A stretch of DNA of 60,858 nucleotides, taken from assembly GCA_051453625.1 (NCBI GenBank), contig JBOZIK010000001.1, positions 45,753,363 through 45,814,220 on the forward strand, in the 5' to 3' direction. How positions within the stretch are numbered: the stretch's first letter is position 1; every line of letters starts with the position of its first letter. The notes below the pieces were generated by a model. That model saw only the letters and a program-made list of their open reading frames with translations. It was not told the DNA's origin and did no database searches. This document shows, in pieces, positions 1 through 57,200 of the stretch. The DNA is from Welwitschia mirabilis. Its lineage: Eukaryota. A program made the translations under genes and the position numbers.

Positions 1-345
1 AGAGATGATGCCACCTCATAATCAATCCACATCAGCTGCCAGTAAGACCTCAGTCAGCATCTAGTTGGTATAGTTATCTGTACTATCATCCAGACGATGA
101 GGTGGATGATGGAATTCAATATTTCTTTAATTATTGCATTAGTCTTGATGTTTGAGGAAGTTATCATCAGAAATACAAAGTATTTATGTTTTCTTAGAAT
201 GACTGTAAATTATTATGGAGATTGCATATTTTCATATTTTCATCTTGGCTCTTCATTATCATGGAAACCAAGCATCTACATATCTCTTTACCTGTAACAC
301 AACTCAGAATACCCTATCAAATATGCATAAGTTGGCAGTGTAACA
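1..345 (-). mobile_element. Start of an LTR related to the 47786/55965 LTRs, abutting an older integrase remnant
   Basis: The reverse complement from 345 reads TGTTACACTGCCAACTTATGCATATTTGATAGGGTATTCTGAG. This aligns with the LTR start at 55965 (TGTTGCGATGCCAAATTATATGTTTTTGATGGGGTATTTTGAG), and similarity continues to the window edge. Confidence 0.75.
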
Positions 346-950
346 TCCATCATAAAATTTCTACTGCCTATCTTCCTCATTCTAATGGCTAAGCTAAAGT
401 GAATAATAAAGAAATTAATAGAATAATAATAAAATTGAATTTTTAGGAAGGAAAATAGATTGGGATAAAAAATTAAATGAAGCTTTATAAGCTTACAGAA
501 TAACTTGGAAACATGACATAGGATTTACACCATATGAATTTGTCTATGGAAAAAGAGCTATTTTACTAATTAAATTTAGAATAAAGACCTCTAAATTGGC
601 TAAAGGACTAAAGTGTAATTTGCATATAGATCAAGAGGAATTTATAAAAAACTTGAATATTTTGGATGAAAACATAAAAGAGGATCTTTTTCATAAGAAC
701 TTATATAACCAAAAACTAAAATATATCATGATAATAAAATTAGGAAAGTCAATTTTAGTATGGGAGATTCTGTACTAATCTATGATCCTAAAAGATCCAT
801 TTAAAATAGAAATATGAACAAAATTGGTTAGGTCCTTATACCATAAAAAAAATTTAGAAAATGGAACAACAAAGGTATATGATCTTGATGAAAAGATAAC
901 CTACCAAGTAAAATGGCATAGAATAAGATATATTATGATTATAAATCTTT
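346..950 (+). mobile_element. Degenerate Ty3/gypsy (Athila/Tat-type) integrase C-terminal remnant
   Basis: Manual translation gives HHKISTAYLPHSNG*AKVNNKEI, EAL*AYRITWKHDIGFTPYEFVYGKRAILL and WLGPYTI (GPY/F motif), with many stops. Confidence 0.85.
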
Positions 951-1245
951 ACTTTATTGTTTAGAAAACCCTAATAGAGTGGAAACGATACTTTCACTCT
1001 ACTTATAAATTAAAAATTTTTAGACTAGATAATAAAGGATGTATCATTTCTTTAAATTCTATTCAATCAATTTATGAAGTTGATTAGAATAAATCTAATG
1101 ATTCAAAAATAATAAGCTAGCTTGGAGAGCCTTCGAGAGGATAAGGTACATTATTCTTATTAAGAGGATTAAGAATACACATTTCATTACATGATAGAAT
1201 ATGTACTAGTATGTATATATACATATACATATGTATATATAGATT

Positions 1246-1421
1246 AACCACAATGTTCTACTGCAAGTGCACCGGGGTAAATATTCCCAAGAGAAGCCTT
1301 TGACAATGCAATATAGTAGTTGTAATGACTCCATTGAGGGGTCAATTGACCATGGTTTAGATTTAAAAATTTTTAGGGTCTTTCCTCCACCAGTAGGAGT
1401 TGCACTCTCCTTATTATGGTT
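1246..1421 (+). other. Conserved non-coding structured motif, copy A
   Basis: Aligns without gaps over ~115 nt to 33400-33569 and with gaps to 53197-53351. The 5' and 3' ends are complementary (AACCACAATG / TATTATGGTT). Confidence 0.7.
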
Positions 1422-3109
1422 AAAAAGTTACGTTGTGATAACAAAGGTTGAGGAACAATTATGCCCTAGGAGTCATCTGAGATACAACTAGTTACTAAGG
1501 CCACAACTATATAATATAGATTTAAAAAAACATAAATAGAATTTTATTCTAATATGTAATGAAATGTAAATCCAAAGATTTTCAATTCAATATCATGCAT
1601 GATCATTAAATTCTATTTTAAAAAAAAGTAAAGCTTCATAGTTGTTTAGTATAGATTTCCTTTAATAAAATAAATATCACCATGAGTAAATAAAAATAGT
1701 AATAAGATAAAATTATTTAAAATAAAATAACAAATAAACACTTTATTAGATAAATGAATTTATTACATCATTACTTAGAAACATAACCAAATCCTTATTC
1801 AACTATTTAAATCTAAGAAATAAATTAATATAATAAATCAATTTAATTCTTGAAATGACTAGAGAACTTGTTCTTTCTATTGGAATGCCTGGTTTTAAAT
1901 AACCCTATAAAACTCTCACCTAAGGATAGTAGGTGCATCTCACTTAAGGATTCTGATAGAATGCTTATTTCCTTAGGGTGAGCTCACCAGAAATTCTTGT
2001 AATACTTGGCATTTCGTATCATATTTTCTATGTTCTCCCTATCAAAACTTAGTATGGCTAGACTAAGTGAAAGATTGGTGCCTTAAAACTGATCAACTTT
2101 CTTCTCTGATACTTGCATTAGTTTAGCTAGTTTACCTAAGGAAACATTGTAAGCTAAGTCTTCTTGATTTAGTTGCTGAAATAATTCTTCTACCCTAACC
2201 CTTAAATACTTGGCCATAAAATTATGGATCATGGGACTAAAACTTGGAGGAATGACTTCATTATCAAAGAATTCTCTACTAGCTTTAATGATAAAGGTAT
2301 CTAATGTATCTAATATCTCTACTTATAATCAGAATGTAATGAGTACTACACCTTATTTTTAGACCTAATAACAATTTAAGGTAATTGGGGTTCTACACTT
2401 CTAATACATACATCAATTTGTATAGAACCTAAGTTAAAAAAGTAATGCTTTACCTTCTTAATACTTGAAGCAGTAATGAAAGAGTAAGGGGAAGTAGATA
2501 CCATAAGGATCGAATAGAAAGAAATAGTAAGGATTGAATGGGATTACGTAAAGAAAATCTAAGACTCAGTATGAAGAATGATGAATGGTTAGCATAAAGG
2601 AATGAGATTTATAGCATAAATACTACTTAACGTAGTTGATAAGCATTATTTATCTTAAGATACTCAATGTACATGTGTTCAATAATTAAGTAAAAGATTT
2701 TAAAGGAAATACATACCTATTCTATTCAACATCTGAGATGTGCCAAGTGTATAGCAGTGATCTTTATGTCAAGACAAAAATTGAAGAATTTCAAACTAAT
2801 CAAGATTCAACCTAAAGTTAAAACTTTAACTCAATTTATGATTAGCTCAATTTTCCCACAAGTTGAAAGTCTTTATAGGAACCCACTATATTTTATTTTT
2901 GTCATCAATTGTCAAGTGGTTAATTAAAATCTTAAAATATTTTCAAATTAAGAAAAACCTTTAGATAATGTTATAAAAATATGATAAGGGGTATATAGGA
3001 AAAATATATATTTTTAGAGGAAAATAAGAAGATAAATATTACCTATATTATTCCTTTAATAGAATGTTATCATAAGCTAAAATTTTGGATTAGGTTTATC
3101 CAGATGATT

Positions 3110-12654: not shown

Positions 12655-15027
12655 GTGCATTGAATTACACTCTAACATTGTGCTCACTGTAGTGCCATTT
12701 CTAAAAGTAAAGTCATGCTGCAGTACCATGTGATAGTTTTGTAAAATCAAACAAAATCACATGCAAATTTGAGGTGGTTTTAATAACTTGTTGGCTTGAA
12801 ACTGACTCTAGAGTACTTATAAATATTCCCTCAGTGCCCATACCAATATAATATTGTTATTATACCATTTTTAGACCAAATTTTTCATTCTCAAGCATTG
12901 GGAGGAAGTTTTCTATCCATTTTCTCTTATTTTTCTTCATTTCCAAGTTGATCTTCTCTCTATATCAACTTTAGAAACCTTTTTAATTTCTCATTCTTAT
13001 CTTTAATATCATTCAAAACCATTCTTAGCCTTTTAAACCCTTTCATACCCCATTTTACATCATATTTTCTTCCATTTCCCTTCATCTAGATGGCATTAAA
13101 AGGGAGGTAAAGTGCACATGATCAGGTAATGCAAGAGAAGGATAAAGTATCAAATCTTCTAAGTAGTTGAATAGAGAATCAATGTAAAGGGCTATACATT
13201 CTTCTAAAATTAATAATCAATTTTTTCTTATGTTTTTCATGCTTTTTATTGATTAATTTATGCATGTTTATCATGATTTTCTTTCAATGTAATTAGACAT
13301 TTATAGCTTCTAGCATAACTAGTGTTAATTAGTTTGTAAAACAATGAGTATCTTTTATGGTAATCTATGATTTTTGCATATTTGATCAACTCTTTGTTAA
13401 AATAATTCATTTGTTTTATTTTTCTTTTCTCTTCTTTCCTCCAATCTTTTCATTTTAAGTACATTTCTCATGATTTCACTTTTTTTCCTAAAGAAATTAA
13501 TGTTTAATTTCTATTCTTTCCTCTCCAATAGAATTAGAATGATCTAAAAATATGTTATTTATACTTTTCTAAAATTAAAATTATTCTTTGTTGTAAGAAT
13601 TCCTCTCTTCTTTCTCCTTTCTCAAAATCAAAGTAGAACAATTAATTTTAGAGGTTGTTTTGGCCATAACATTTTTCTCTGCAACTTTAAATATTCTGAT
13701 ATTATATTAATAGTTTTTTTTTCGTAAAGTATAATAATCCAAATTTGACCTCTAAAAACCCATTTTCAGCAATTTTTAGTCTTAGTTACATTTTCTATTA
13801 GAAAATGTTCTAAACTGTCATATCTTATTTTTCTTATTTTTTATAGTGATTTTCTTAATCGTTTTAAATGTGTTTTTAAAAATTCAAGATTTTATCTTGA
13901 AGCATTTTTTAGTGCTTTCTAAATATGAAATCAATTTTATCTCAAGCTCTATTTTGCTAAATTCTTAGTCAAAGTAGGGTTAACTATAATTGTTTATAGT
14001 TTTTTTAGTTAAACTATTTTTGATCAATTATAATCTATTTTACATAATCTTAAATATTTAGTTTTATAAACTTGTTTTATGGAATATTTTGAGTATTTTG
14101 AGTGTTGTTAAATTTTCTAAGTCTATTTCTCTCAATTTTCTCTTCCCCTTTTCTCTCTCTTCTTTATTTATTCTTGTTTTATTGGTCAAAATAACTTGAA
14201 ATTGACTAGGATTTACTTTAATTTATTTAACATTCTTATACAAGTTTTATTAATTTCCTATTGATTTAAACCCTGATTTTTATTTCTAAATGCTTTTATA
14301 ATTCATTTTATGATTAAATAAAGAGTTATCATTCAAGTTAAATAGGTTGTAATTTAGCAAAGATCTTGTTTTTATCAAAAGGTTTTCCTAGTCAATGTGA
14401 AGAATCTAAGTGTTATATTTAGATTTTAAATTAATGTACATTTTAAATATAATGGATTATGATGTTTAAATTACCTAATTACATACATTTAATATGAATT
14501 AATAAGTCAAATTTTAAATGAAAATTATTTTTACATATGAAAATAACTTGATTAAATTTGAATGTTTAAACTCCTTTGGTTATTCATGTGAATTATAAAT
14601 TATGTTTAGAATCTTATAAATGTTCATAAAGGATTACTTCTTTTTATGTTCTTATATTTTCATTTTTACATCTTATAAAATTATGCTTTTAAACATGTAA
14701 TTTTTCATTATTATTTTATGTCATATGTGTTAAATTGGTTGTATGTTACTTTAGAGACATAGTTATTTTATCATATGAACTGACAGTTTGATAAGGTACT
14801 TTTAATATTTTCATAAGAATTCATGTTAAGTTTTTTATCGATTTGATACTCATGTGCTTTACTATATTTGCAATTCCATCTAGGAGATTTCTTTTTGATA
14901 TAATTTAAACTTTTTATACTTGATTTTCTTTCCCTAAGTTGAATTATCATGTTAAATACACATTTATTTTTGGTAGGGATCATATTGTGATATTTTTATT
15001 TTAAAATTTTAGTTTTTACTTCATTCA
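12655..15027 (+). mobile_element. 5'-truncated LTR of the Athila-type family at 15739-30086
   Basis: Colinear with 15739-17779 and ~27365-30086. All three end in ...AGTTTYTACTTCATTC(A/G). No PBS follows this copy. Confidence 0.8.
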
Positions 15028-15029
15028 AT

Positions 15030-15638
15030 AATATCTTATGGATCAAGACAACTTAAAATACATAAGAAAAATTATCATATTCATGATCTTGAATTAGCTA
15101 CATTAATTTTTGTTTTAAAGTTATTGAAGCATTACCTCTATAGAGTAAAGTTTCAAGTTTAGAGAAATCATAAGATTATAAAATACATTTTCACTCAACC
15201 AAACTTAAACCTTAAGCAAAGAAGATAGATGAAATTTCTATGTAATTTTAGTCTATAGATTTTATACTATGAAGGTAAGGGAAATAAGTTGTAGATGCTC
15301 TAAATGAGGTTATCTTAAAGTAATTATGAAAATTTAAAGCCAAATATTTAGCATTATTTTAGAGGAATAAAAAAGGGATGAAAATTATCACAAATTAAAG
15401 GATTAATTATAAAAATTAATAGATTTAGAGGAATTTATTATTAATTTAGATGGTAATCTCAAATTTAAGGGAAACATTTTAATTCCTAATGTAGATAAAA
15501 TTAGACATAAGTTAATATTTGAATTTCATAATCTACCTAAAGTAAGTGATTTTGGAGGAACTAAAATATATTAAAAATTAAACAAAGATTTTGATAACAC
15601 AGGATGAAATAAGATATAGCAAAATTTGTATCAATGTA
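15030..15638 (+). mobile_element. Chromoviral (Tekay/Del-like) RNase H-integrase fragment
   Basis: Translates to HDLELATLIFVLKLLKHYLY...HKIIKYIFTQPNLNLKQRR*MKFL, matching the HDLELAA..ALK.WRHYLYG..DHKSLKY..LN.RQRRW pattern. Confidence 0.85.
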
Positions 15639-15738: not shown

Positions 15739-17779
15739 ATCAACTTTGAAAACCTTATACATTCCTCATTCACATCTTTTTCTATCATATAATTTCATTT
15801 TTGGACTTTTAAATATTTTCATATCATATTTCTTGTCATATTTTCTCCCATTTCCATTCATCTAGAAGGTGTTGCAAGGGTGGTGAAGTACACATAATTG
15901 GATAGTGTAAGATGAGGAGAAAGAATCAGGTCTTGTAAGTAATTAGATGGAGGACTAATGGAAAGGTTTGTGCATTCATTTGAAATTAATAAGTTTTACT
16001 TTTTTTTATGTATTTCATGCTTTGAATTACTTGATTTATGTATGTTTATCATGATTTTCTTAAAATGTAATTAGAATTTTTATAGCTTACNNNNNNNNNN
16101 NNNNNNNNNNNNNNNNNNNNNNNNNNNNNNNNNNNNNNNNNNNNNNNNNNNNNNNNNNNNNNNNNNNNNNNNNNNNNNNNNNNNNNNNNNNNNNNNNNNN
16201 NNNNNNNNNNNNNNNNNNNNNNNNNNNNNNNNNNNNNNNNNNNNNNNNNNNNNNNNNNNNNNNNNNNNNNNNNNNNNNNNNNNNNNNNNNNNNNNNNNNN
16301 NNNNNNNNNNNNNNNNNNNNNNNNNNNNNNNNNNNNNNAAATTAAAATTATACAACATTGTAAGAATTATTTTCTCTTCTTTCTTCTTTCTCAAAATCAA
16401 AGTAGAATAGTTAATATTAGAGGTTGCTGCTGCCATAAATTTTTCTCTGCAACTCTAATGGTTCTGTAATTTGGTTAGTAGATTCCTATTAGAATTTAGA
16501 AAATTTTTTTCGCAAAGTTTTAAAACCCAAATTTGGCCTCTAAAACCATTTGGGCCATTTTTAGTCTTAGTTAGAATTTTACTTAGACAAATTTCTGAAT
16601 TGTAAAATCTTTTTTTTTTAAATTTTATATACTCATTTTTTTAGTCATTTTTAATGTATTTTTAGAAATTAAGGATTTAATATTATATTACTTTTGAATT
16701 ACCTTTAAATTATAAAATTTAATTTTTCAAAAGTTTCATAGTTTGCTTAATATTCTCAGTCAAAATAGGGTTGACTATAATTTTTTGTAGTTTTTCTGGA
16801 TGAACTGTTTTCATTGATTGCAATTGATTCTACTTAATATTGAATATTTAGTTTTACAAACTTGTTTTTAGAATATTATAAGTATTTTTAATGGTCTTGA
16901 GACTTTTAAGTTTATTCTTCTAAATTTTCTCTTTTCCTTTTCTCTCTCTTCTTCATTTCTTCTCTTTTTACTAATCAAAATAACTTGAAATTAACTATGA
17001 TTACTTTGATTTAATGAACATTCATATGCTAGTTTTTATCAATTTATTTTTGATTTAAACCCTAATTTTAATGTTTAAAAGCTTTTATAATTCATTTTAT
17101 TTTTAGTAAAAGAGTTATCTTTTAAGTCAAATGTATTGCAATTTAGCGAAGATCTTATTATTGTCAAATGTTTTGCCTAGTTAATTTAAATGATCTAGAT
17201 TTAGAGTGTTTTATTTTGATCATAAATTGATGTATACTTTACATAGAAAGGAATATTATGTTTAAATTTACCTAATTATATCCATTAAGTATGGATTAAA
17301 GAAGTCAACTTTTCAAGGAAAATTATTTTCACACATGAAAATCACTAGGGTAAATTTGAATGTTTAAACTTCTTTGCGTATTCATATGAATTATAAATGA
17401 AATTTAGAATCTTGTGAATGTTCATAAAAGATTACTTCTGCTTTTTTTTTCCTTGTAATTTCCATTTTTACATCTTGTGAAATTATGCTTTTGCACATGT
17501 AGTTTTCCATGATTATTTCAAGTCCTGTGCATCAAATTAGCTGTATGTCACTTAAGAGAAATAATTATTTTGTCATACAAGTGTTTTGTCAGTTTAATAC
17601 TTATGGGCTTTTACTATATTTACAATTTGATCTAGGAGATTTCTTTATGATACAATTTAAACTTTTTATACTTAATTTTCTTTTCCTAAGTTAAAATATT
17701 ATGTTAAGTATACATTTATTTTTATGAAGGCTTGAAGCATGATCTCCTCATTTTAAAAATTGAGTTTCTACTTCATTCA
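15739..17779 (+). repeat. 5' LTR of the Athila-type element (start hidden in gap)
   Basis: Homologous to the 3' LTR, ends in CA, and is followed by a PBS. Confidence 0.8.
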
Positions 17780-17782
17780 AAA

Positions 17783-17799
17783 TTAGCATCATTACCATG
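17783..17799 (+). promoter_or_regulatory. Decayed primer-binding site (Athila tRNA-Asp type)
   Basis: TTAGCATCATTACCATG versus the Athila PBS TTGGCGCCGTTGCCGGG. The differences are almost all transitions, and the site lies 3 nt after the LTR end. Confidence 0.7.
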
Positions 17800-17988
17800 C
17801 AACACTTGTTATTATGTGAAATACTATACTTTTCTTTGAGAATTTACATACACTAATAGAAGTTAACTATTTTCATGTGCTTTCAATACTACAATTGCAT
17901 CAAGCCTTTTAGGTGCATATGTTCTAACTCTTATTACGTTTTTGTACATATCTTTTTCTTTTAATGTTATGCATTTATGAGTAGAAAC

Positions 17989-18058
17989 CGAAGACGGGAT
18001 TTGAACCCATGACTCAAGGGTATGAGCCTTGCAAGCTACTAGGATACTCTACTCCACA
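17989..18058 (-). pseudogene. trnfM: Degenerate plastid-type initiator tRNA-fMet(CAU) copy
   Basis: The minus strand reads TGTGGAGTAGAGTATCCTAGTAGCTTGCAAGGCTCATACCCTTGAGTCATGGGTTCAAATCCCGTCTTCG. It has a CAAGG/CCTTG anticodon stem with CAT and a GGTTCAAATCC T-arm. It matches chloroplast trnfM as recalled, with C>T/G>A decay. Confidence 0.85.
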
Positions 18059-18238
18059 ATTTTCTTTATTTTACTTGTTTGTTTAAATTTTTGATAATTA
18101 CATCAAGATAATCTAAATAGTTTTGTAGAACAAATAAAAAGGTTTTGATAACGAAGTTGAAATAATCTAAAAAGGTGTTCACTATGAATAAAAAGAAGAC
18201 TTTTGAAAATTATTTTGGAAACTCTTCGAAGCAACTGC

Positions 18239-18412
18239 AAATAAAATAGTCAAAATTGCCTTAATGGCTTTTTCAAACAAAATAGCCAAAATCGCCTTAA
18301 TGGCTTTTTTAAACAAAACAGTCAAAATCGTCTTAATGGATTTTTCAAATAAAATAGCAAAAATCACCTTAATGGCTTTTTACAAAATAGCCAAAATTTC
18401 CTTAATGGCTTT
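18239..18412. repeat. Tandem repeat, 36-bp unit x5, in the retroelement leader
   Basis: Unit AAAYAAAATAGYCAAAATYGCCTTAATGGCTTTTTY, with no spacers between copies. Confidence 0.9.
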
Positions 18413-18529
18413 GGTAAATGTTTGTATAGTTCTAAATCCTCTTCATCTCATAACTTACCTCCAAATTTGATTTCATCTTCACTTGAATTTAACACCTTTG
18501 CTTAAGCTTCAAATATTCTTTCTTCTCAA

Positions 18530-19817
18530 ATGGCTACTAAAGATAATAATTCTCATATGTCTAGATCTCAACCTATATTTAGTCAGCTTTTTGAAGATTA
18601 CTAAACTAACTATTCTATTTCTTTTATCCATGATGCTTTAATATCTATTAAAAACTTAAAGGACTTCCCAAACTTTCGTGGTTTATATTGTGATAATCCT
18701 TATGAATTTCTTGAAGAATTTGACTTAATTCATAAGATTACTCCTCAAGCTCATTCTGATGAAGTCAAATTAGTAATATTTCCTCTTTTCTTAAAAGATA
18801 GAGGTAAACATTAGATTAAACTAGTTAATCATAATGAAGATATTTCAAATCTTGGTAAATCTAAGAAGGCTTTTATTAAGAAATTTCTCCCCATTGCTTA
18901 CATTAAGTAAAAGAGAAATCTTATTAGTAGTTTCAAGTAATCTCGAACTAAATATTATTCTAAAACTTTTAAGCATTTTCAAGATCTTCTAATTAAAAAT
19001 TTTAATCATTATTTTAAAGTTTGGAGATTAGTTCAAGTTTTTCTAAAAACTCTTAATAAAGACATTAAAAAATTAGTATAAACATTAACTACTAAAGATT
19101 TGTTAAATTCTACTCCTGATGGAACATGGAAAGAATTAGAAGATTTATTAGAAGTTACTCAAAGGTGGAAAAATGTTGATAATGAACATGTTAGAAGTAA
19201 ATTTAATTTGAACAAATGTTTTTATAAGGATAAATCTCATGATGAATTAGCAAAGAAAATAAAGTTCTATCTGCTTAACTTGAAAATATTAAATTAGAAC
19301 AAGAAAATATTAAGGAAATTCTAATTTAACCTTTTTCAAGTTTATCTTATTATGAGTAGTATCAAGTAGAAGATCATTCCATTAAATTTTTTAAAGTTAT
19401 TTATATCATTATCATCTTTATAAATCTTATTCCTTTAATCAAAGTTATCATGCTTCTACACCATTCAATAGGTATCCTAACTCTCATCAAAAAAATTTTC
19501 ATTAGAGTTCCTTTCATTTGTTAGTCAATCAAATAGAACAAATGTAGCAAATCACTGGTTTCATGTTTCAACAATAAAATAAAAAGAAGAATCATCCTAT
19601 CTTATCTTACTAATCTACTCTAAATCCAACACCAACCAATGTGGTGGAAGAACACACTAATGTAAATGTCATTGGATCAAGAATTCAAAAACTTAATTCA
19701 AAACCTAGTTTTAAAGCTAAAGAAGATTCACATTTAGATAAAATAATTAAAAATATTGAATCTGACTCTAGGGAAAAATTCTAAAAGAGAAAATTAGAAG
19801 ATTCAATTCCTTTTCTA
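18530..19817 (+). pseudogene. Athila gag remnant, copy 1
   Basis: FPNFRGLYCDNPYEFLEEF and VKLVIFPLFLKDRGKH resemble Athila gag motifs. Frameshifts and stops are present. Confidence 0.75.
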
Positions 19818-20023
19818 GGCGTACATGTTCTATCTCTCATTACTTTTTTGTGCATCTCTTTTTCTTTTTATGCTATGCATTCATGAGTAGAAATTGGATT
19901 CATAATGGTAAATTTTTTCATAATACTAAACCCTCTTCACCTCATAATTCACCTTCATATTTGATTTCATCTTCACTTAAATTTAACACCTTTGCTTAAG
20001 ATTTAAATATTCTTTCTTCTCAA

Positions 20024-23000
20024 ATGACTATCAAAGATAATAATGCTCATTCATCTAAATCTTTATCTACTCTTGGTTAGCTTTTTAAAGTTTTCCAAAT
20101 TAAATCTTCTATTTTACTTATGATGCTTCAATATCTAGTAAAAACCTTAAGTATTTCCAAAATTTTCATGGTTTAGATCATGAGGATCCTTATGAGTTTG
20201 TTGAAGAATTTGACTTATTTTACAAGATTACTCCTTCAACTCATTCTGATGAATCCAAATTAGCAATTCTTCTCCTTCTTTTAAAAGATAGATCTAAACA
20301 TTGACTTATACTATTTAATTATAATGAATATCTTTTAAATCTTGGAAAATTTAAGGAATATTTTATTAATAAATTTCTCCCTGCTACTTGTATTAATTAA
20401 ATTAAAAAGCTTATTATTAGTTTTAATAAATCTTTGACTAAATCTTATTTGAAGATCTTTGAGTGTTTTTAAGGTCTTCTAATTAAAAATTTTAATTATG
20501 ATTTTGAAGTTTGAAGATTAGTTCAATTGTTTTTAGATGGACTTAATAAAGAAATCAGAAAAATAGTAAAAACATTAACTATTAGATATTTATTAAATTC
20601 TACTCTTAATGAAGCATGGAAAAAATTAGAAGATTTAGCAGAAGTTACTTAAAGATAGAAAAATATTGATAATGATCATGTTAGAAGTAAACTTAGCTTG
20701 AATGAACTTTTTCATAAGTATAAATCTCATGATGAATTAGAAAAAAAAATAAAAGTTCTTTTTGCTTAACTTGAGAATCTTAAATTAGAATAAGATAAGC
20801 TTAAGAAAAGTCTAACTCAACCTTCTCTAAGTTTATCTTTTTGTGAGTTGTATTAAGTAGAAAATCACTTCATTAAATTTTGTAAAAAATTTAAGGCAAC
20901 TCTAAGTGATTTACATCTTTATCATCTTTTTGAAGCCTATGCCTTTAATTAAAATTATCATGCTCCTACACCATTCAATAAGTATTCTAACTCTCATCTA
21001 AATAATTTTCATTAGAATTTCCTTTTCTCTTTATAACAATTAATGTCAAAGGCAATCTAAATCTTTACCTCTTCCTCCTTCATAGAAAACTAAATTGGAA
21101 GAAATAATGCATTTGTTAGTTAATTAAATGGAACAAATGCAATAAACCATTAATTTCATGTCCCAACAACAAAATAAAAAGGAGAATTATGCTAGTTTGT
21201 CTTCCCAATCTACTTCTCATCTAAAATCAAATAATGTAATGGAAGTACATTGATGCATATGCCATTAGATTAAGAAGTGGAAAGTCATTTTAAAACATAG
21301 TTTTAAATCTAAAGAAGATGCAAATTCAGATAACATAATTGAAAATCTTGAATCTGATTAGTTTTAAATATAAAGAAGATGAAAATTCAAATAACATAAT
21401 TAAAAATCTTGAATCTAATTCTAGAAAAAAGTTTTAAAAGAGAAAATTAGAAGATTTTATTCTTTTTCCTAGTCATCTTTAATCTAATAAAGGTTCTAAT
21501 AACTATGATGATCTTCATAAAATTTTTAAAGATGTTAACATTAATCTTCTCCTTCTTGAGATAATTAAGTAAATTCCTTATTATCCAAGTTTCTTAAATA
21601 CTTATGCACTCATAAAAGAAAGATTCAACCTTCTAGAGAAATAATTAATCTTACTTCATCTATTACTTGTGTTTGTAATTAAACATACCTATGAAGTATG
21701 ATGGCCCTAGATTTCCTACTATCTCTATTACTATTAATGATCATATTATTTATAGAGCCTTAGTATGTTTAGAAGCTGAAGTCAACCTTATGCCAAAAAT
21801 TATTTTTCATGTCTTAGGATTTAACCATGTTGATTTGACTAATGTAATTCTTTCTATAAATAATGGAACCTTGGTTAAATCCTTTGAGATATTAAGAGAT
21901 GTATTGATCCAAATTAATAAAGTAGTTTATCTTATGGGATTCATTATTCTTAAAATTTCCATGAATTCCACTAGTTACCCTATCACTTTTAGTAGACCTT
22001 GGCTTTCTACAGTGGATGCGAAAATTAATTATAGATTTGATGCATTAAAAATTATCTTTGACAATCTTCCCATTACCTTGAATGTGTTCTATAATTAGGG
22101 AAAAAAGACTATTGAATTGAATGAACATTTACCTACGCCTGAAATTCAACCTGTAAGTGATGATTTTTTTAATTTTGAATGATATATTTTGTTCATATGC
22201 TAATTATGAATTGCTTGTTACATCTTATTTAGATTCAAATGAAATTGATACTCTTATTAGATGTGTTTATTTTGAATTTATAATTATGTTTGTAAATAAA
22301 TAAAAATGAATGTTTCTTTGAATGATGTTTTTATAGCTAATAGTATTACTAATATTGAATTAAAACCTCTACTTGATCATTTAAAGTACATCTTTCTAGG
22401 TAGTAATCAATTTAAACCTGTTATAATTAGTGCACATCTTACTTATTTTTAAGAAAAAGATATTTATGATATATTTCTTGAACGTTCTCTAGCTTTTGCT
22501 TGGTTCTATCATGATTTGATTAGTGTTCATCCTTTTGTTTGTTCATATTGTTTTATTTAGAATCTAATATCAAACCTGCTTATCAACCTCAGCATATACT
22601 AAATTCAAGTTAAGGGATATTGTTAAAGATAAAATCATGAAACTTTGGCAAGCTAATATCACTTGCCCCATTACAGATAGTGAATGGGTAAGTTCTTTAC
22701 AAGTTATTCCAAAAGAAGAACGGTAAATGATGAATTTGTATTGATTTTTATGCTCTTAATAATCATACTCAGAAAGATCCTTTTTTTGTTCATTTTATCA
22801 ATTTAATTCTTGATAAAATTTTTGACCATCATTATTGTTGTTTTTTGGATGGATACTATGGCTATTATAAAATTTTAATAACTCTAGAATGTCAAGAAAA
22901 AACTACTTTTACTTGTCCCTTTGGAAATTTTACATACAGTCGCATGCCTTTTGGGTTATGTAATACTTATACAACTTTTCAAAGATGCATGACTGGTCTT

Positions 23001-25090
23001 TTTTTTAAATTTAGTAATTAATTATTATAAATATTCATGAATGATTTTTCTCTTTATGATGATTCTTTTGATCAAATAATTTATCATTTAAAGTTAACCT
23101 TAAATTTTTGTACTGATCATAATCTTAACCTTAGTTGGAAGAAAGGTCATTTCATAGTTACTAAAGGCATTATTCTTTGTCATACCATTTTTAAAGAAGG
23201 AATAGAAGTAGATTCCACTAGTATTTATATCATTCATTCTCTTCTAGCTCCTACTTATGTTAAATATATAAGATCTTTCTTAGGTCATGTTCGTTTCTAT
23301 TGTCGTTTCATTCCATCTTTTAGTTCTCTTAGTAAATCTTTGATTGAATTGCTTTTAAAAGATGATGTTTTTCTTGGACTCTTGAGTGTGAGCTTGAATT
23401 TTAAAAACTAAAAGACTTTTTTTCATCTTCACTTGTCCATGAATATTCTAATTGACATTGTTTGTTTGAAATAATAACTGATGCAAGTAATTTTACAGTA
23501 GGTGAAGTATTAGATCAAATTGTTGAGCATAAATCCTTTGTTATTGCCTATGCTAGTAAGACTTGCATAATGCTCAACTTAATTATTCCACTACTGGAAA
23601 GGAGATGTTAGGTGTTATCTTTACTCTTGAAAAATTTTTCCACTATCTTATTGGTTATCCTATAATTATCCTTACTTATCATGTTTCTTTAAAATACATT
23701 CTAAATAAGCCCTTAACTAAACCTACTCTTATGTGTTGGGATTTACTTATGCAAGAACTTGATATTACAATTAAAGATAGAACAATAATGAAAACCCCAG
23801 TTGCTAATCATTTATCTCATCTTTCCATGTCCATTAATCCATTTTAAATTAATGAAAATTTTCTGGATGAAAATTTACTTGCTATGAATGTTTTACCTTG
23901 GTATGCTAATGTTACAAATTTTAAATCCTATGGTAAACTTTCTAGTAACATGTCTTATTATGATCAAAAGAAAATTTTGTCTTAATGAATAAATTTCTTT
24001 GGAAACTACTTGTTTTGTTTAAATATTGTAGTAATCAAGTCTTTTGAATTATGTAACTAAGAACGAAATGATTAATATACTAGAATTTTATCATAATGGT
24101 GTTTGTGATGGACATTTAAGTGGAAAGAAAACCACATCTAAAGTTTTAAATGCTAGATTTTTCAAGATGCTAATAAATTTTTTAAATCACATGATAAATG
24201 CTAAAGAATGGGTGGAATTAGTAGGAGAAACAAAATGCTTCTTGAACTTATCATTGTTTGTGAACCTTTGATGTTTAGGGTGTTGATTTTGTTGGACCAT
24301 TTCCATCCTTATTTGATATTGTTTATATTCTTATTTATGTGGATTATATTTCTAAATGGGTAAAAGACAAAGCTTATAAAGATTGTTATGCTAAGACTAT
24401 TGTTAGATTTTTAAAATATTATGTTATATCCTATTTTTGTCATTCTTAAGTAATCATTACTGATCAAGGAACCCATTTTTGTAACAAAATTTTTAGAAAT
24501 GTTATGCTTAAATGTGATATTACTCATAAGGTATCTACTGCATATCATCCTCAAAATAATGACAAAGCTAAAGTAACAACCCATGATCTTATTAGAATTC
24601 TTTAAAAAAATAGCTAATACTAATAGAAAATATTGGTCACTAAAATTTTCTGACCCCTTATGAGCTTACCATATAGCTTTTAAAATTCCCATTCCTTTTA
24701 AACTTATTTATGATAAATAATATTTCCTTTCTATTAAGATAGAACATCAAGATTTTGATATTAGTCGTACACTTAATCTTGATTTTGAAAAATGTGCTAC
24801 ACATAGATTAGATGAATCAAATGAATTAGATGAAATAAGATTAAGTTCTTACAATAATTGAGTTCTTGCTAAGAAATCAATGGAATATTATCCTGATTAT
24901 ATCATTCTTAAGAAAACATTTCATGTAAGTAATAAAGTTTTACTTTTTAATTCTCATTTTCATTTATTTCTTATAAAATTAAAGTCTATATGGGAAGGTC
25001 ACTTTATTATCACTCATGTTTTTCCTTTTGGGACTATTAACATTCAAGATCCTAAAACTGGTCATGTTTATTAAGTAAATGAATCTTAAA
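20024..25090 (+). pseudogene. Athila gag (copy 2) plus pol remnant: protease, RT, RNase H, integrase
   Basis: Protease RALVCLEAEVNLMP. RT SEWVSSLQVIPK, CFLDGYYGYY, FTCPFGNFTYSRMPFGLCN, IFMNDFS. RNase H FEIITDASNF, AQLNYSTTGKEMLGVIFTLEKF. Integrase GVDFVGPFP, VDYISKWV, DQGTHFCN, STAYHPQ. Confidence 0.92.
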
Positions 25091-25656
25091 AAAACTAAAA
25101 GATAATAAAAGTTGTTTATGTTTCTTTATTTTTCTTAAAACTAAAAAATATTGGTATTTTTTGGATAATGAAATAAGAGTTATAGATCTTGTGTAATTAC
25201 ATTCAGAAGGTCTACAAGCTTTAAGAAGGATCTACTTTTATTTATTTTATAAAAAGTATCAATCTAAAATTATTTTCAAGTTTTCTTTTTAGTTTTTATT
25301 TTTCTTTATTCCTTTAATAAATTATAACTAAGCTATGTATTTTTCACATAAAAATCCTAGTTTTCATTCAAGTTTTAAACCTCCATATTTATTAAAATTT
25401 TGTATTTAATGCTTTATCTCTTTTTTATGATAGTGTATATTTTTTGTGTATGAAGTCTATGAGATTTGCTTTCTTATGTAATATTGTTTTATAATATAAT
25501 ATTTTGCATGTTCTTTTATTTTATCTATCTTGTGTTTACATTTTTCTTTTCTTTTTACAAATGAATAAAACTTAATAAAAATTTAGTTGTAATTTTTACA
25601 TTTATGAATAAAATGTTAAAGTACTAATGTATCTGCATTTATTTCTTATCTCCTAT

Positions 25657-25657
<1 letters not shown>

Positions 25658-25729
<72 letters not shown>
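25658..25729. repeat. (AC)n microsatellite running into an assembly gap
   Basis: Uninterrupted AC repeats, directly visible. Confidence 0.98.
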
Positions 25730-26858
25730 NNNNNNNNNNNNNNNNNNNNNNNNNNNNNNNNNNNNNNNNNNNNNNNNNNNNNNNNNNNNNNNNNNNNNNN
25801 NNNNNNNNNNNNNNNNNNNNNNNNNNNNNATGAAATATTATCATTATTAAATCATTCTTTGGAAACATTTTCATGTAGGTGATAAATTTTTACTTTTTAA
25901 TTCTTATTTTCATTTATTTCTTAGAAAGTTAAAATCTAAATGGGAAGATACCTTTGTTGTTATCGTGTTTTTCTTTTTGGGACTATTGAATTAAAGATCA
26001 TAAAATACTCATGTTCAATGTGTAAATGGATCTAAACTCAAGTTATCTAATGATCAAAATTTAAATGGGATTGAGATATATTTTGATTCTTCTTTTGGAT
26101 GAAAATGTGATAAAATCTAAAAAACCAAAATATTTTAAAAATATTAGTATTTTTGGATGATGAAATGAGAATTATGAGTTTCATGTGATTGCATTCAAAA
26201 GGGCTACAAGCTTTTATAAGGGCCTACTTCTCTTTGTTTTTCCAAAAGTATCAACTCACAAATATTTTCAGCTTTTGTTTTTGAATTTTAATTTTTCTTT
26301 TTTCTTTTAATAAATTATGATCAAGCAATGTATTTTTAACTCAAAATCCTAGTTTTCACTTAAGTTGTAGGGTATCACTAATTATTTGTTAAGTTTAAAC
26401 CTCCATATTTATCAATATTTTATATTTAGTGCTTTATCAGTTTCTATATGATAGTGTGTATATTTCATGTATGAAATCTGTGAGATTCACTTTCTTATTT
26501 AACATTATTTTATAATATGATATTATAGGCATGCTTTTAGTTTACCTAGACTGTGAAATATATATTATAATGGATTTATTATTATTATTATTACTATTGC
26601 TTCATATGTTGTAATATTTATAGGACTAGCATTTAGATCCACAAACATCCACTTGAGCTATAGACATATCGATGATTAATCTGTAAGGCTTGGCAAATGA
26701 TGTAACTCCTCATCATCAGGTGAAGGATGAATGTCATTAGATATTGTAATAATATGTTTAATATCACATCCTGTAGATGAGCATCTTAATTATTAGTAGA
26801 CTTCCTTCCTCTTATCATCGTCACTTGCACAAAATGTACAAGGAGACTAATTGCAAAA

Positions 26859-29800: not shown

Positions 29801-30086
29801 TGGTTACTTTAAGTCATGTGTGTTAAATCAGTTGTATCACACTTCAGAAAAACAGTTGTTTTATCATATTAGGTGATAGTTTAACAGAGAAGTATTCATA
29901 TTTCCATACAAATTCATGTCAAGTATTCCATCAGTTTAATACTTATGTACTTTCACTATATTTTCGATTTCACCTAGAAGATTTCCTTATGATACAATTT
30001 GAACTATCATCTTAAGTACACATTTATTTTTGTAAAATCTCAGAGCATAATTCCTCATATTAAAAATTAAGTTTTTACTTCATTCG
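26859..30086 (+). repeat. 3' LTR of the Athila-type element (start approximate)
   Basis: Homology to the other two copies is visible from ~27365 to 30086. The start is guessed from a TG (TGTAATGAAGCCTGAATTTTGG) after a weak purine tract. Confidence 0.7.
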
Positions 30087-32562: not shown

Positions 32563-33399
32563 GAATAAGAANNNNNNNNNNNNNNNNNNNNNNNNNNNNN
32601 NNNNNNNNNNNNNNNNNNNNNNNNNNNNNNNNNNNNNNNNNNNNNNNNNNNNNNNNNNNNNNNNNNNNNNNNNNNNNNNNNNNNNNNNNNNNNNNNNNNN
32701 NNNNNNNNNNNNNNNNNNNNNNNNNNNNNNNNNNNNNNNNNNNNNNNNNNNNNNNNNNNNNNNNNNNNNNNNNNNNNNNNNNNNNNNNNNNNNNNNNNNN
32801 NNNNNNNNNNNNNNNNNNNNNNNNNNNNNNNNNNNNNNNNNNNNNNNNNNNNNNNNNNNNNNNNNNNNNNNNNNNNNNNNNNNNNNNNNNNNNNNNNNNN
32901 NNNNNNNNNNNNNNNNNNNNNNNNNNNNNNNNNNNNNNNNNNNNNNNNNNNNNNNNNNNNNNNNNNNNNNNNNNNNNNNNNNNNNNNNNNNNNNNNNNNN
33001 NNNNNNNNNNNNNNNNNNNNNNNNNNNNNNNNNNNNNNNNNNNNNNNNNNNNNNNNNNNNNNNNNNNNNNNNNNNNNNNNNNNNNNNNNNNNNNNNNNNN
33101 NNNNNNNNNNNNNNNNNNNNNNNNNNNNNNNNNNNNNNNNNNNNNNNNNNNNNNNNNNNNNNNNNNNNNNNNNNNNNNNNNNNNNNNNNNNNNNNNNNNN
33201 NNNNNNNNNNNNNNNNNNNNNNNNNNNNNNNNNNNNNNNNNNNNNNNNNNNNNNNNNNNNNNNNNNNNNNNNNNNNNNNNNNNNNNNNNNNNNNNNNNNN
33301 NNNNNNNNNNNNNNNNNNNNNNNNNNNNNNNNNNNNNNNNNNNNNNNNNNAAAAAGGAAAAAAGAACAAAAGAAAAAAAACATTAAAAAATAGAAAAAC

Positions 33400-33569
33400 A
33401 ATCATGATGTTATACCACAAGCACACCAAGGAAAATATTCCTGAAAGGGGCCTTTGGCAGTGCGATATGATAGCTATAGAAACTCCACTAGGGTGTCAGT
33501 TAGTCATAATCTAGCTTCAGCTTATGGTCCTTATGCTCTTGGGAGTGCTTATACTCCCCTTATCATAAT
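33400..33569 (+). other. Conserved non-coding structured motif, copy B
   Basis: Aligns with 1246-1421. Stems TACCA/TGATA, GCAC/GTGC, CCAAGG/CCTTTGG, CCT-GAAA-GGG and GGGAGT/ACTCCC, closed by ATCATGATG/TATCATAAT. Confidence 0.7.
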
Positions 33570-34420
33570 GGACAGTGTTCTCTAAACACCCCATTGACTG
33601 GATTTTCCTATCACTCTGAAGTTCTGACTCGTCGAGCATTTAGAACGTCGAGCATTTAGAACGTATTGGTCATTAAATGGTAAGTTAGTAAGATCTCACT
33701 TGTTGTTATAGTCGATAATTGAATTGAGTTATAGTCTAAACATTATGTTGATACTTTGCGGGATAACCATAGGCATTATCATAATCACTGCCCTTATCGC
33801 ATGATACTGTATGTTATTTAGCATTAAACCACATGATAACGACATCTAATAATGTTATAATCCATACTAACAGACTTTGCTAGATTAGCATTTAGAGGTG
33901 TAGAAATCAATATTCTTTATGTCCATGTTTATCCATTTTGACCTAATCTTTTCTTAGTATTTGCAATTGATTACCTTAAAGTCATTATTGCATTCACTCC
34001 TACCTGCTTGAGACTAATCCTACTTCCCAATTAGCTTGTTTTGTTTTGGTATCATCCCTTTCCACCACCCTGCCTTGCCACCTTGTGATGTTGCGATAAG
34101 CTACTTTTCCATTGTCACCACCTATCATCCCCTTTCTTTATTTACCACTCTCTTATACCCTAATTCATCCTTGTCCATTTTCATAGTTAGGGTTAGATGT
34201 CACCCTTTTCCATTTTTTGCATTTATCGCTACTCCCCTTCCCTCATATTTTACCATTTCATATCACTTGTGTCATTTTCCCATATCTTTCTCATCCACCT
34301 ATGTTGCCTTTGAAAAAAAGGAAAAAAAGAAAAAAAAGAGAGAAAACTTTAAAAAAAGTGAAAGCCCCAAAAAGAGTACGTGATCATTTTTGACATAAGA
34401 CTCGTCTTTTACCTCACACC

Positions 34421-34949
34421 AAAAAGGGGGTAACAGTAACACCAGCACTCGCTCAACACACCATGGAAGAGGAAGGCGTCCATTCCAAGGATGACAACAT
34501 GGAAGGACAGTTACATTCAGAAAACAATGGCGTCTCGAAAAGAAGACAAGCACAAAACCAACGTTAGAGGGATTACGAGAGATCTAAAAACAGGAAAAGA
34601 TCAGAACAAAGCGAACAAAAACGTGCAAGCTAGAAGGATTAAAAAACAAGCACAGTTGAAAAACAGCATTGAGGAGAAGAACGCACAGAGAGAATGCTAG
34701 GGCACGGAGTGCTAGCTAAAGGCATAGATCAGGATGAAAACAGGATTGCAGGAGGAAAACACGAACGGGTTGAGGAGGAAAACACAGATTACAAGACGAA
34801 GAACGCAACTAGGAGTAAGAGAGTAAGAGCGCTCACAGAAAGTCATGACGAAACGGTACTAGAACAAATTAGAGAGCATAGAATTTAGGAGGGGAAGACG
34901 CATTTCAGAAGAAGACGGCAAAAATGTAGTAGAAGGAGGAGTTGTTACA
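34421..34949 (+). mobile_element. Polypurine tract plus putative ~515-bp 3' LTR (Tat-like)
   Basis: AAAAAGGGGG at 34421-34430, then near-inverted termini AGTAACA (34435) and TGTTACA (ending 34949). No partner LTR was found in the window. Confidence 0.5.
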
Positions 34950-35973: not shown

Positions 35974-36291
35974 ATTGCGTACTTTTCTTTTTCCTCCACT
36001 GGCAATCCATTCATCTCCTCCAACACTCTGGTGCCCGCTTCTGCATTCTTCACTTCGAAAATTCCCCAGCCCACACACGCCGCGTAGAGTCTGGCCAGCT
36101 CACTCTTCTTTTGCTGCGTCGATGACCAGAACCTCGGCGTTGATGCTGTAAACGGTGGCGGAGACCCTTTTTCCGCCTGGTCTGATGTATCGTTCCTGCG
36201 CTTTAACGGTGCGGTACTGCGCCATTTCTTGCACGTTGTCCAGTTTGTAAACGCGCTTGCTGGTCCTGCGTCTGCTCTCGTTGCCCTTCAT
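35974..36291 (-). pseudogene. Truncated, frameshifted inverted paralog of the 5' part of the LBO-like gene
   Basis: MKGNESRRRTSKRVYKLDNVQEMAQYRTVKAQERYIRP aligns with MNGDEVKRKSGKSVYQLDDVQELAKGRPAKVPERYIRP. After a deletion and frameshift it continues ELARLYAACVGWGIFEVKNA...VLEEM, then after a second deletion LPVEEKEKYA. The 5' UTR motif CAGAGAGTCAG is also shared. Confidence 0.93.
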
Positions 36292-47785: not shown

Positions 47786-49021
47786 TATTATGATGCCAAA
47801 TTATATGTTTTTTATGGGTATTTTAAGTAGGTTTATAGGACATTTAAATAGTTTTATCACAAAATGACGATTATTGAAAGTCAAGAAGAAAATCATGAAA
47901 ATGCGCAAATACTAATACATTTGAAGGCATTTTAGATTAATTCAGATACTTCACATTATAAGGAAAAATTAATGAGATTTAAGACCAATTTAACTTGATA
48001 AAGAGATTTAAGAAGGTTATCGTTCTCTCTATTGTTTGGATGACGTACGAGGATGACACCACTTACATGCTAACTAGGATGCTGACTAGATCGATATGAA
48101 AGCTAAATATAGAACTCTCTTGATATGACATTGTCTTCACCATTGTCCAAACGATACACAGGATGACAATCTAATTTTAGTCAATGTACCAAACTTCATC
48201 TAACTTGTGAAATGTGTCAGTCACTTTCTATGAACCATTAGGATTTTGGTTGCATCTATTAGATTTGCTAATTTTGAGTCTGTTGTTGTTAATAAATACT
48301 GCTTTTGCCCTTGACTCCAATCATCTTTTTTGGTAATAGAAATTATCATAACAAGAGATTAAAGGGAAGGAGGCCCATCCATTAGTTGTAGAGAGGAGTC
48401 TTCCTTGGTGATGGGCTATGTCTCCTCCATTAAGTGTTAGTGCTTTCTAACAAGATGTTGGTTTAACTATTAATGAAAATGTTCTTTTAGTTTTATTCAT
48501 ATTCAGGTGCATTTTCTTTATGATTTATATTTCTTTTGATTATATGATAGTTTCATTTGTTATATATGTCATTAAGGATAATATTTATTAAGGTTAAAAA
48601 CATTAGTTTAGGAACTTGCATTACATTTTATATTTCCTAGATTAATCATTACATGTTTTCATATTCTATTTCATACACTTGATAGCCTAGGTTGATTTGG
48701 TTAGTGATAGTTTCCTTGATTGATCTAGATTATATAGGGATGATCTTGATGATAGAGATTTGGTAGTTGAATAGATATTGCATTTAGGGTAGTTTTCATT
48801 TTGCATTTGCATAGTCTATTTATTTTTCTTGCGTTATTGATTTTCATTTTGAATCTTTACTTTGTGAAAAGAAATTTTCTTTCTTCTTGTGTAGTGCCTT
48901 TGGTAAATTATGACATCTGGGTTCACTCTCATCTATATTAGTGTGTTGTATTTATGCATATATTTATGATTAATAAAAATTGATAGAGGATGTAACATTT
49001 GCATAAATATGCACTACAACA
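47786..49021 (+). repeat. 5' LTR
   Basis: Colinear with 55965-57200 and ends in CAACA before the PBS. Confidence 0.9.
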
Positions 49022-52000: not shown

Positions 52001-53196
52001 GAGATTATTTTTCTATGAGTTATATGAATTTTTTATGTCTCATATTACTAATACATCTTGTAGAGATAAAATGTCATTTAGTCATAATAATTGGAAAAAG
52101 GCTTATTCCTTTAATGAAAATCCATATCTTAAGTTGAATGATAGAAAGCTTTATTATTTTACTAGACATTTTAAAAATCCCTCAAAAGCTTCTTGGATAC
52201 TTTTTTTGAGTACTTCCTTATGCGCACTATATGATGATATTCATGATTTATGTTGTTTTAATAAGAGATTATTCTTCAATGAGATTTATCATTTCTTTAT
52301 CTCTTCTTTAAAATCTGAAATTTGTGCTATCAAAGTTTTATCCTTTTATTATTTTTACCTTTAATTAATTTTACTAAAAAATGATTGTATATGTTTTATT
52401 TTGTATTAATTGGTGAATATTTGGTTTGATCCTTATTTTTTGATAGAATACAATATTCTAGGATCATAGCCTTAGGAATAAATCTTTCTTTTTCTTTATT
52501 TTCAATAAAAGTGTTGATAATATTTTAGGATTTGAATAAAATTTAGTTTTAGTTTACTTTGATATTTCCTTTTTACTCTTATGTTTTTATGTTTTTATCT
52601 TTGATTTTTATTTTAAGGAATAAATTAATCTATAGATGGTTAGGTCCTTATCTTTTAGAGAAACTACATTTTTAATGGACCAGTTGAAATTTCTGATTTA
52701 AACACTATGTAAATTCAAAAAATGGACAAGAGTTAAAAATCCATGAATCATCAAATCTTGAATATGATTGAAGTAATTATTTTGCAAGTCATCTTATCAT
52801 TATCTAAATTATTTCTTAGCTTATTATTTTGGTGGACTCATGATATCACTTGAACATCTTTTAAACTTGACTTATGCTTTACTTTGTAAAGTTATCATGA
52901 CTAGTACTTTTTACTTGGGAATTAGAGTGATAAAATTGGATTCACCCAATCTTAAGACATTGAAATGTTTATCAACTTCATTTAAAGGAAGATTTTTTAG
53001 TTTCTTGTATTTTCTCTCAATAGTGTGAGTCTTTGGTTACTGGGGGTGTTCTTTCTTATCTTCAATCTCATTTCTTTACCTTCGTCTTTGCAAGTGTGTG
53101 GCCATGTATAATTTATTTTAAAGAATTATGTGGGAAAAAAAGGAAAGAAAGAGAGCAAATAATAACCATGATCTATTATTTCTGTGTTAAATACAT

Positions 53197-53351
53197 GATC
53201 ACCATGTTGCCCTACCCCACTGAGGTAAATTTTCCTAAGAGGGACCTTTAACAATGTTGGTAGCTATGAGAACTCCACTAGGGGGTCAGTTGTCTATGCT
53301 TCGTGGGTTCTTACTTCTTTGACTATGGTTGCACTCCCTTCATCATGGATT
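53197..53351 (+). other. Conserved non-coding structured motif, copy C
   Basis: CACTGAGGTAAATTTTCCTAAGAGGGACCTTTAACAATG...GTAGCTATGAGAACTCCACTAGGGGGTCAGTTG...GTTGCACTCCCTTCATCATGG aligns with copies A and B. Confidence 0.65.
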
Positions 53352-55964: not shown

Positions 55965-57200
55965 TGTTGCGATGCCAAATTATATGTTTTTGATGGGGTA
56001 TTTTGAGTATTTTTATAGGATATTTTAGATAGGTTTAAGCACAAAATGATGATTACTGAAAGTCAAGGAGAAACTCATGAAAATGCATATATACTGAGAC
56101 ATTGAGGTATTTTGGATTAATTCAAATAATTCACATTTTGAGGAGGAATTAATAAGCTTCGAGATCAATTTAACTTAATAAATAGCTTTAAGAAGTTTAT
56201 CATCCCCTTCATCATTCAGATGACATACTAGGATGACATCAGTTACATGCTGAAAGGATGCTGATTAGAATGACATGAAAGCTAAATATAGAACTCTCTT
56301 AACATGGCACCATCTCCATCATCATCTAGATGACACACATGATGACAATATAATTTTAGTTAATGTACCAAACTTTACATAACTTGTGTAATGTATCATT
56401 CACTTTCTATGAATCATTAGGATTTTGATTACATCTGTTAGATTTGCTATTTTTGAGTCTGTTGTTATTAATAAATACCACCTTTGTTTTCAACTCTAAT
56501 AATTTTCTTTAGCACCAGAAATTCTTGTGATAGAAGATTGAAGGCTAAGAGGTCCATCTGTTAGTTGTAGAGAGGAGTATTCTTGTTATTAAGCTGTGTC
56601 TCCTTCATTGAGGTGTTGCTACTTTATAATAGAATATTGGTTGGACTTTCAATAGAAATCTTCTTTTAGTTTTATTCATATTCATGTGCATGTACCTTAC
56701 AATTTATGTTGTTTATGATTCCATGACAACTTCATTTATGATATAGGTTATTAAAGGCAACCTTTGTCAAGGTTGAAAATGTTAGTTTAGGAACTTGCAT
56801 TGCATTTTATATTTCTTAGATTAAGCATTTCATGTTTTCATATTCTATTCAATGTACTTAATAGCCTAGGTCAGTTTTGGTTAGTGATAGTTTCCTTAAT
56901 TGATTTAAGTTATAGAAGGCTGATGTTGATGACAGAGATTTAGTAGTTGGATAGATATTGTATTTAGGGTAGTTTGCATTTTGCATTTGCATAGTCTGTT
57001 TACTTTTCTTGCATTGGTAATTTTTATTTTAAACTTTACTTTGTGAAAACCAATTCTATTTCTTCTCATATAGTGCCTTTGATGGATTATAACATTTGGG
57101 TCCACTTTCGTCTATATTACTGTGTTGTGTTTGTGCATATATTTGTGATTGACATAATTTAATAAAGGACTTAATATTTACATAAATATGTATCTCAATA
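55965..57200 (+). repeat. 3' LTR
   Basis: Starts TGTTG after the PPT and is colinear with the 5' LTR. Confidence 0.9.

Follow-up and report, generated by a model that had tools for sequence, protein, structure and literature searches.

The window considered here, i.e. the whole stretch of 60,858 nt that was analysed, consists of plant-like repeat DNA with 28.6% G+C outside seven runs of N and a CpG observed/expected ratio of 0.33. The best-preserved pol region in it belongs to a gypsy element in which RVT_1, RNase H and rve domains were recognized by Pfam in that order on the + strand, an arrangement that places the element in the Ty3/gypsy type. One LTR of about 2.3 kb occurs in three copies; two of them bound this element with its reverse transcriptase, RNase H and integrase, and the third stands directly in front of it, either as a solo LTR or as the remains of a second element. 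Two internal tandem duplications, one before gag-pol and one after integrase, were also found in the element, together with a complete tRNA-Met gene in antisense orientation. The latter lies about 200 nt past the end of the 5′ LTR; its position is not that of a primer binding site, and it has no relationship to the sequences discussed below. Another feature of the window is an uninterrupted open reading frame for a 2OG-Fe(II) oxygenase, which forms an island of G+C-rich sequence in repeat DNA of 29% G+C and has an inverted fragmentary counterpart nearby. The coordinates of these and other features are collected in Table 1.

Table 1. Features of the window, with positions counted from its first nucleotide.
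Feature	Positions	Strand	Remarks
Block, copy A	1246..1421	+	176 nt, 40% G+C, 1 CpG
Block, copy B	33400..33569	+	170 nt, 41% G+C, 1 CpG; N run ends 49 nt upstream
Block, copy C	53197..53351	+	155 nt, 45% G+C, 1 CpG; gaps of 3, 4 and 15 nt relative to A and B
Integrase remnant before A	198..961	+	decayed, frame-shifted; last open piece closed by stop 962-964
Weak extra A-C similarity	1445..1484 (A), 53368-53408 (C)	+	absent from B
Purine-rich tract before B	33351..33380	+	ends 20 nt before B
Purine-rich tract before C	53130..53159	+	ends 37 nt before C; (GA)n at the matching place in an expressed relative
Further purine tract, 3′ region of B	34311-34347	+	
Purine run A5G5	34421..34430	+	starts 851 nt beyond the end of B; taken for the polypurine tract that precedes the 3′ LTR of its host
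5′ LTR, host of C	47792..49011	+	80.65% identity over 1225 nt with 55971-57190
3′ LTR, host of C	55971..57190	+	purine tract 55946-55961 directly before it
Gypsy element with best-preserved pol	15739-30085	+	RVT_1, RNase H, rve
LTR of about 2.3 kb, three copies	12722-15030, 15739-17780, 27421-30085		75-77% alike
Tandem duplication before gag-pol	18412-19514 / 19906-21025		80% alike
Tandem duplication after integrase	24880-25527 / 25830-26548		72% alike
tRNA-Met (CAT)	17986-18060	-	complete; Rfam 37.1 bits; ARAGORN
2OG-Fe(II) oxygenase frame	38611-39807	+	398 codons; DIOX_N, 2OG-FeII_Oxy, E about 7e-25; about 51% G+C, CpG o/e 0.99
Inverted fragment of the oxygenase frame	36010-36295		70% identical
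Match to PF20167, upstream of B	30270-30470	-	E 0.003, 17.8 bits against a cut-off of 45

Three copies of one block, designated A, B and C, are scattered through this repeat DNA on the same strand. Comparison by blastn within the window gave 70.5% identity over 95 nt between A and B (E 1e-7), 75.3% over 73 nt between B and C (E 8e-9) and 70.5% over 88 nt between A and C (E 4e-6). A profile search with nhmmer, all filters being off, recovered the three copies with E values from 1e-42 to 5e-51; the next match in the window stood at E 1.1, no further copy being found there below E 1, and everything that follows on the window is based on these three full readable copies. Copies A and B are aligned without gaps over 115 columns, 78 of which are identical, and transitions account for 33 of the 37 differences. 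The middle part of the block is more variable (identity 39–47%, gaps of 5, 11 and 15 nt), and 22 nt are kept again at its 3′ end with identity of 64–77%. Private differences number 21–26 per copy in about 157 aligned columns and are mostly transitions.

Sequences around the block behave in another way. When 1.2 kb on each side of the three copies were compared by a local alignment scheme without penalty on transitions, the best scores were 15.5–24.5 against shuffle maxima of 20–26.5, whereas simulated pairs of about 55% identity reached a score of about 450 in the same scheme, so the flanks either have no relationship at all or have diverged much further than the block has. The sole exception is a marginal match between A and C, 23–63 nt past the block, where a score of 22.5 compares with 21 for the best shuffle. 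The block stands out as an island of conservation with sharp edges. The two LTRs of the host of C are 19% diverged and the window is strongly depleted in CpG, and for these reasons much of the divergence between the copies is probably decay that followed insertion. Such decay would probably explain much of the 29–32% divergence in the 5′ part of the block, the copies having been more alike when the elements inserted. It may be inferred that the flanks were probably already unrelated at that time, while the blocks were more similar, and this combination fits a cis-acting signal under strong constraint.

Copy A begins about 285 nt past the stop that closes a decayed integrase remnant. One piece of this remnant matches the rve-positive segment of the gypsy element mentioned above (tblastn, E 0.002); the rve assignment (PF00665) was made on that matched partner, Pfam having returned nothing on the remnant itself. 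On the minus strand downstream of A, Pfam also gave nothing, which is weak evidence. The upstream context of copy B is mostly unreadable beyond 49 nt because of a run of N, and the 3′ LTR of its host, 0.85 kb downstream, has no partner within the window. Further upstream of B, there is a weak match below the cut-off to PF20167, a "putative plant transposon protein", on the opposite strand, which could be a remnant of an antisense extra ORF. Copy C is located in an element bounded by LTRs on both sides, and the purine tract directly before the 3′ LTR shows that this element has the + orientation; C lies 57% of the way along it, 2.6 kb before the 3′ LTR. A stretch at 47700–47740, some 90 nt ahead of the 5′ LTR of this element, resembles the sequence just past its 3′ LTR (57199–57240), and the similarity extends partly to the start of the internal region (49012 onward); the true ends of the element may lie elsewhere, or the arrangement may be tandem.

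These results agree with most of the observations made on the block in the original prediction: three same-strand copies at the positions given in Table 1, a gapless and transition-rich match of about 115 nt between A and B, flanks that do not align, and distances of about 300 bp after an integrase for A and about 850 bp before a polypurine tract and LTR for B. The placement of C in the 3′ half of its host also holds, but the description of this host as pol-less is less secure, as Pfam on read-through translations upstream of C found nothing and was equally blank on the visible integrase remnant of A. The statement that the block was kept across lineages goes too far. The element with the best-preserved pol in the window carries no copy in its readable sequence, which is interrupted by three runs of N, and thus the block is not a common property of gypsy elements. 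Each of the three copies runs in the same direction as its host and is found either after pol or in the 3′ part of the internal region. Judging by this arrangement of sequence, the block is situated on the genomic RNA outside the genes, in sense orientation near the 3′ end of the internal region of Ty3/gypsy-type elements.

Four public sequencing runs (two DNA and two RNA) were aligned to positions 52700–53575 at 80% likeness. Short DNA contigs matching this stretch numbered 21,635 and 23,514 per run and were distributed across its whole length; more than 20,000 contigs per run mean that the family of C is very abundant. The RNA runs contributed 72 and 22 reads, which cover the block, and the loose ends of these reads carry less decayed, CpG-bearing versions of it. 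No strand bias was found in the RNA libraries. In one expressed CpG-rich relative (run X17), the variable middle from 53292 contains a short hairpin with UUCG as its loop, where B reads UUCA and C has a deletion.

Contigs and joints from the same runs bear on the best of the alternatives, according to which the block is not a selected signal but a portable module, distributed by MITE- or SINE-like insertion or by template switching between co-packaged RNAs of different families. This explanation would account for the sharp boundaries and the truly non-homologous flanks, as well as for ends resembling inverted repeats (10 pairs, 80% of cells paired), the letters of which are the same as those of the closing stem proposed for the RNA. 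Copy A is, moreover, framed by TTAA on both sides. Summed word depth, which is not the same as copy number, is about 2.5–4.5 times the mean of the flanking bins at 53240–53359 in both DNA runs, and a frequent break with mixed following letters was found at 53350 (run X5, 103 contigs, agreement 0.61). However, the depth of the upstream bin 52940–52969 equals or exceeds that of the block, which is therefore not alone in its abundance. In the family of C it is co-linear with both flanks: contigs cross its 3′ edge (for example, 53203–53364, 53289–53572 and 53325–53524), joints link 53100 to 53158, 53183 or 53223, and no precise empty site was present among the 15 of 108 joints inspected, all of them from the DNA runs. 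All three copies have the sense orientation of the host, and no target-site duplication shared by the three sites was seen by eye. A portable module is judged unlikely, even if it retains more in its favour than the other alternatives.

Two particular forms of mobile DNA were considered. MITEs and SINEs resemble the block in size, sharp edges and inverted-repeat-like ends, but the block has neither target-site duplications nor consistent pol III boxes nor tRNA likeness, no stand-alone copy of it was seen, and it always follows the sense of its host. The lack of a shared target-site duplication and of a precise empty site among the joints inspected speaks against an origin as a MITE. As for a tRNA-derived SINE, no tRNA match falls on the block, and the best matches to the pol III A and B box consensus used for this comparison have 1–3 mismatches and occupy different places in each copy. 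The block also showed no likeness, in either sense, to the tRNA-Met of the window.

Purine-rich tracts suggest another explanation, namely, a signal acting at the level of DNA or reverse transcription together with such a tract: extra plus-strand priming, an internal promoter or a protein-binding site. Tracts of this kind precede the block in two of the three copies (B and C) and in one expressed relative, where a (GA)n run was recognized from a loose end before 53144 (run X14, 13 reads). In the 3′ region of B they form a cluster, at 32532, 33351, 34311 and 34421. Stems and loops of the block are alike conserved at the sequence level, which speaks for a signal of this kind. Clustered polypurine tracts with conserved flanking motifs are described in Sireviruses (PMC2829016). 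Against this explanation, copy A has no purine tract upstream, the tracts before B and C differ in sequence, and the block is unlike any LTR start in the window. Its comparison with seven LTR-start stretches was not clearly above shuffles (2 of 21 comparisons exceeded the maximum of 40 shuffles by 0.5), and an identity with the LTR 5′ end (the start of U3) was rejected. A length of about 170 nt also far exceeds the need of a priming site. We regard a DNA-level role as rather improbable.

The original prediction described the block as a structured RNA, with a long arm capped by a GNRA loop, subsequent hairpins, and a closing stem in which paired positions had changed together between the copies. 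The helices can indeed be formed: 81.5% of cells pair, compared with 32–48% when the partners are slid by 1–3 columns, and this is expected, as the structure was derived from the same sequences. Beyond the fact that they can be drawn, the helices gain no support from folding energies. Minimum free energies have z values against dinucleotide shuffles of +0.2, −0.8 and +1.34 on the + strand of A, B and C, respectively, and −0.43, −1.34 and +1.0 on the − strand. The GNRA cap exists as GAAA in B, but A and C read AAGA there. One arm of the proposed long helix is shorter by 6 nt in an expressed relative and by 3 nt in C, which is a poor fit to that helix.

RNAalifold on the three copies gave a weak consensus of −18.98 kcal/mol, about half of the mean single energy (single sequences, −34 to −42 kcal/mol), partly different from the proposed fold and with an unfavourable covariation term of +1.22. 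Pairs changed on both sides do occur (5 of 40), but, with three sequences only, as many are seen in 81 of 500 column shuffles, and 44 of 500 attain the covariation score. All five double changes are transition pairs and, consequently, can be produced by symmetric cytosine decay. Three copies are too few for covariation, and the label of RNA structure is not supported by these data; a fold that once existed may be masked in these decayed copies. Pairing of C with the leader of its host was also considered and rejected: the duplex energy was −74.3, shuffled sequences had −62.1 ± 5.0 and reached −79.8 at the lowest, and the structures obtained were meaninglessly long.

A stronger version of the RNA hypothesis would see in the block an undescribed structured signal for export, packaging or dimerisation, common to several very abundant gypsy families of this AT-rich plant genome and their non-autonomous riders, with a fold blurred in old copies by cytosine decay, and marking which elements can use the proteins of each other. 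This version seems rather improbable. The block also shows no affinity to known classes of RNA, as had been predicted. With Rfam (release 15), the only match in the whole window at gathering scores was a tRNA at 17990–18055, and none was on the block. Searches at E up to 10 covered the surroundings of A and B, the surroundings of C being covered by the scan at gathering scores; they gave no matches around B (33351–33700) and 17 around A (1150–1520), all far below gathering scores. The latter were mostly miRNA-type models on the TA-rich microsatellite just upstream, while the block itself was touched by one snoRNA model and two lncRNA models.

The possibility that the block is a small ORF, or the conserved start of one, arises from an ATG that is invariant in all three copies (1253, 33407 and 53204). 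In B this frame runs for 36 codons without a stop, counting the codon that precedes the ATG, and the stop that follows reads TGG in an expressed relative; from the ATG to the GGTAAAT stretch, the length differs by 3 nt in C and by 6 nt in an expressed relative, multiples of three in both cases; and A has an open frame of 82 codons, though in a different frame. Nevertheless, the differences in the ATG frame are distributed over the codon positions as 14/7/13, 9/8/11 and 10/7/10, without any excess at third positions, gaps of 4 and 5 nt disrupt every frame, and when substitutions were re-placed at random, over six frames and several blocks, the smallest p in 48 tests was 0.005. Comparison of a profile built on the ATG frame with 1.84 billion proteins found only four chance matches to repeat proteins and no true relatives. 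Word searches for relatives of another frame, read in the sense direction in A and B, and of one antisense frame in B were blank, a result that is weak for very short ORFs. The block does not look protein-coding, as there is no coding signal in six frames, and a small ORF seems quite improbable. For the same reasons, i.e. the absence of protein relatives and of a codon pattern of change, the extra ORF of plant Ty3/gypsy elements was rejected as its identity. A self-cleaving ribozyme or other catalytic RNA, raised in the original prediction as an unrecognised ribozyme, is scarcely credible, as only size and drawable hairpins speak for it, whereas the surroundings of A and B gave no match to any Rfam ribozyme model at E up to 10 and the folding energy is no better than that of shuffles.

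Several known systems can be compared with the block. The constitutive transport element of Mason-Pfizer monkey virus and the direct repeats of Rous sarcoma virus are about 100–170 nt long, lie after the last gene and before the 3′ LTR, and act in cis on unspliced RNA; their folds and protein partners have been established experimentally. The block agrees with them in size and place, but has no supported fold, and no sequence relation to them is claimed. Cis signals common to autonomous and non-autonomous LTR partners are also known, for example, in BARE-1/BARE-2 and RIRE2/Dasheng; such signals are found in the LTRs and the 5′ leader and at the primer binding site and polypurine tract, and are not known from a block after pol. 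Likewise, the block is kept both in an element without detectable pol (the host of C) and in an element with an integrase remnant (the host of A).

The nearest described kind was found among Sireviruses, i.e. elements of the Ty1/copia type. According to Bousios et al. (2010, PMC2829016), very divergent members of this group share short, highly conserved non-coding blocks between the last gene and the 3′ LTR, with several polypurine tracts. The likeness, which is one of description only, consists in conserved non-coding blocks before the 3′ LTR accompanied by polypurine tracts; the difference is that Sireviruses belong to copia and not to gypsy elements and have repeated short boxes, polypurine tracts and junction sequences in place of a single block of about 170 nt (PMC2829016). 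In the literature searched, with supplements outside the search, no description was found of a structured and conserved block that follows pol in gypsy elements of plants, and the available portions of papers on ATHILA junction motifs and on Diaspora describe no such block. Four short strings of the block met only unrelated primers in full-text literature, and two conserved stretches used as exact patterns had no matches in metagenome contigs or in a scan of viral contigs. The block is, apparently, undescribed.

In our opinion, it is best considered as an undescribed conserved non-coding cis signal of one group of retroelements, with a role at the level of RNA in handling or selecting genomic RNA; we would give this reading a probability of somewhat less than one half (about 0.45). 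The block would belong, as a conserved non-coding component, to the internal region past pol of related and very abundant Ty3/gypsy-type LTR retroelements, and its sense strand would be carried in the 3′ part of the genomic RNA of the element. Its conservation would then reflect selection. Most likely, it acts in cis for the element's own propagation, as an RNA signal that would be recognized by proteins supplied in trans, and the step served may be the export or stability of the unspliced genomic RNA or, alternatively, its selection and pairing. A cis signal read by trans-acting proteins would explain why the block stayed nearly unchanged while its surroundings were replaced, and also why it is present in an element without detectable pol. 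In favour of the cis-signal reading, besides the similarity of the copies amid unrelated flanks, are their common orientation in the hosts, the purine tracts before B, C and an expressed relative, the co-linearity with both flanks in the family of C, the occurrence in RNA reads and the lack of a coding signal. The points against the cis-signal reading are that the copies fold like shuffles, covariation does not exceed that of the controls, the consensus fold is weak, and A is without the purine tract. The missing copy in the gypsy element with the best-preserved pol, the nucleotides missing from one arm of the long helix in C and an expressed relative, the RNA libraries without strand bias and the small number of full copies, three, count against it as well.

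Summarizing the significance of these data, the block, as it stands, is a well-bounded conserved non-coding sequence that is useful for the annotation of repeats in the genome, and it gives no evidence for a new class of RNA. If it proves to be a required cis signal, it would provide a handle on how an abundant group of plant retroelements gets its RNA handled or chosen, and it would also serve as a simple marker by which autonomous elements could be matched to their non-autonomous dependants.
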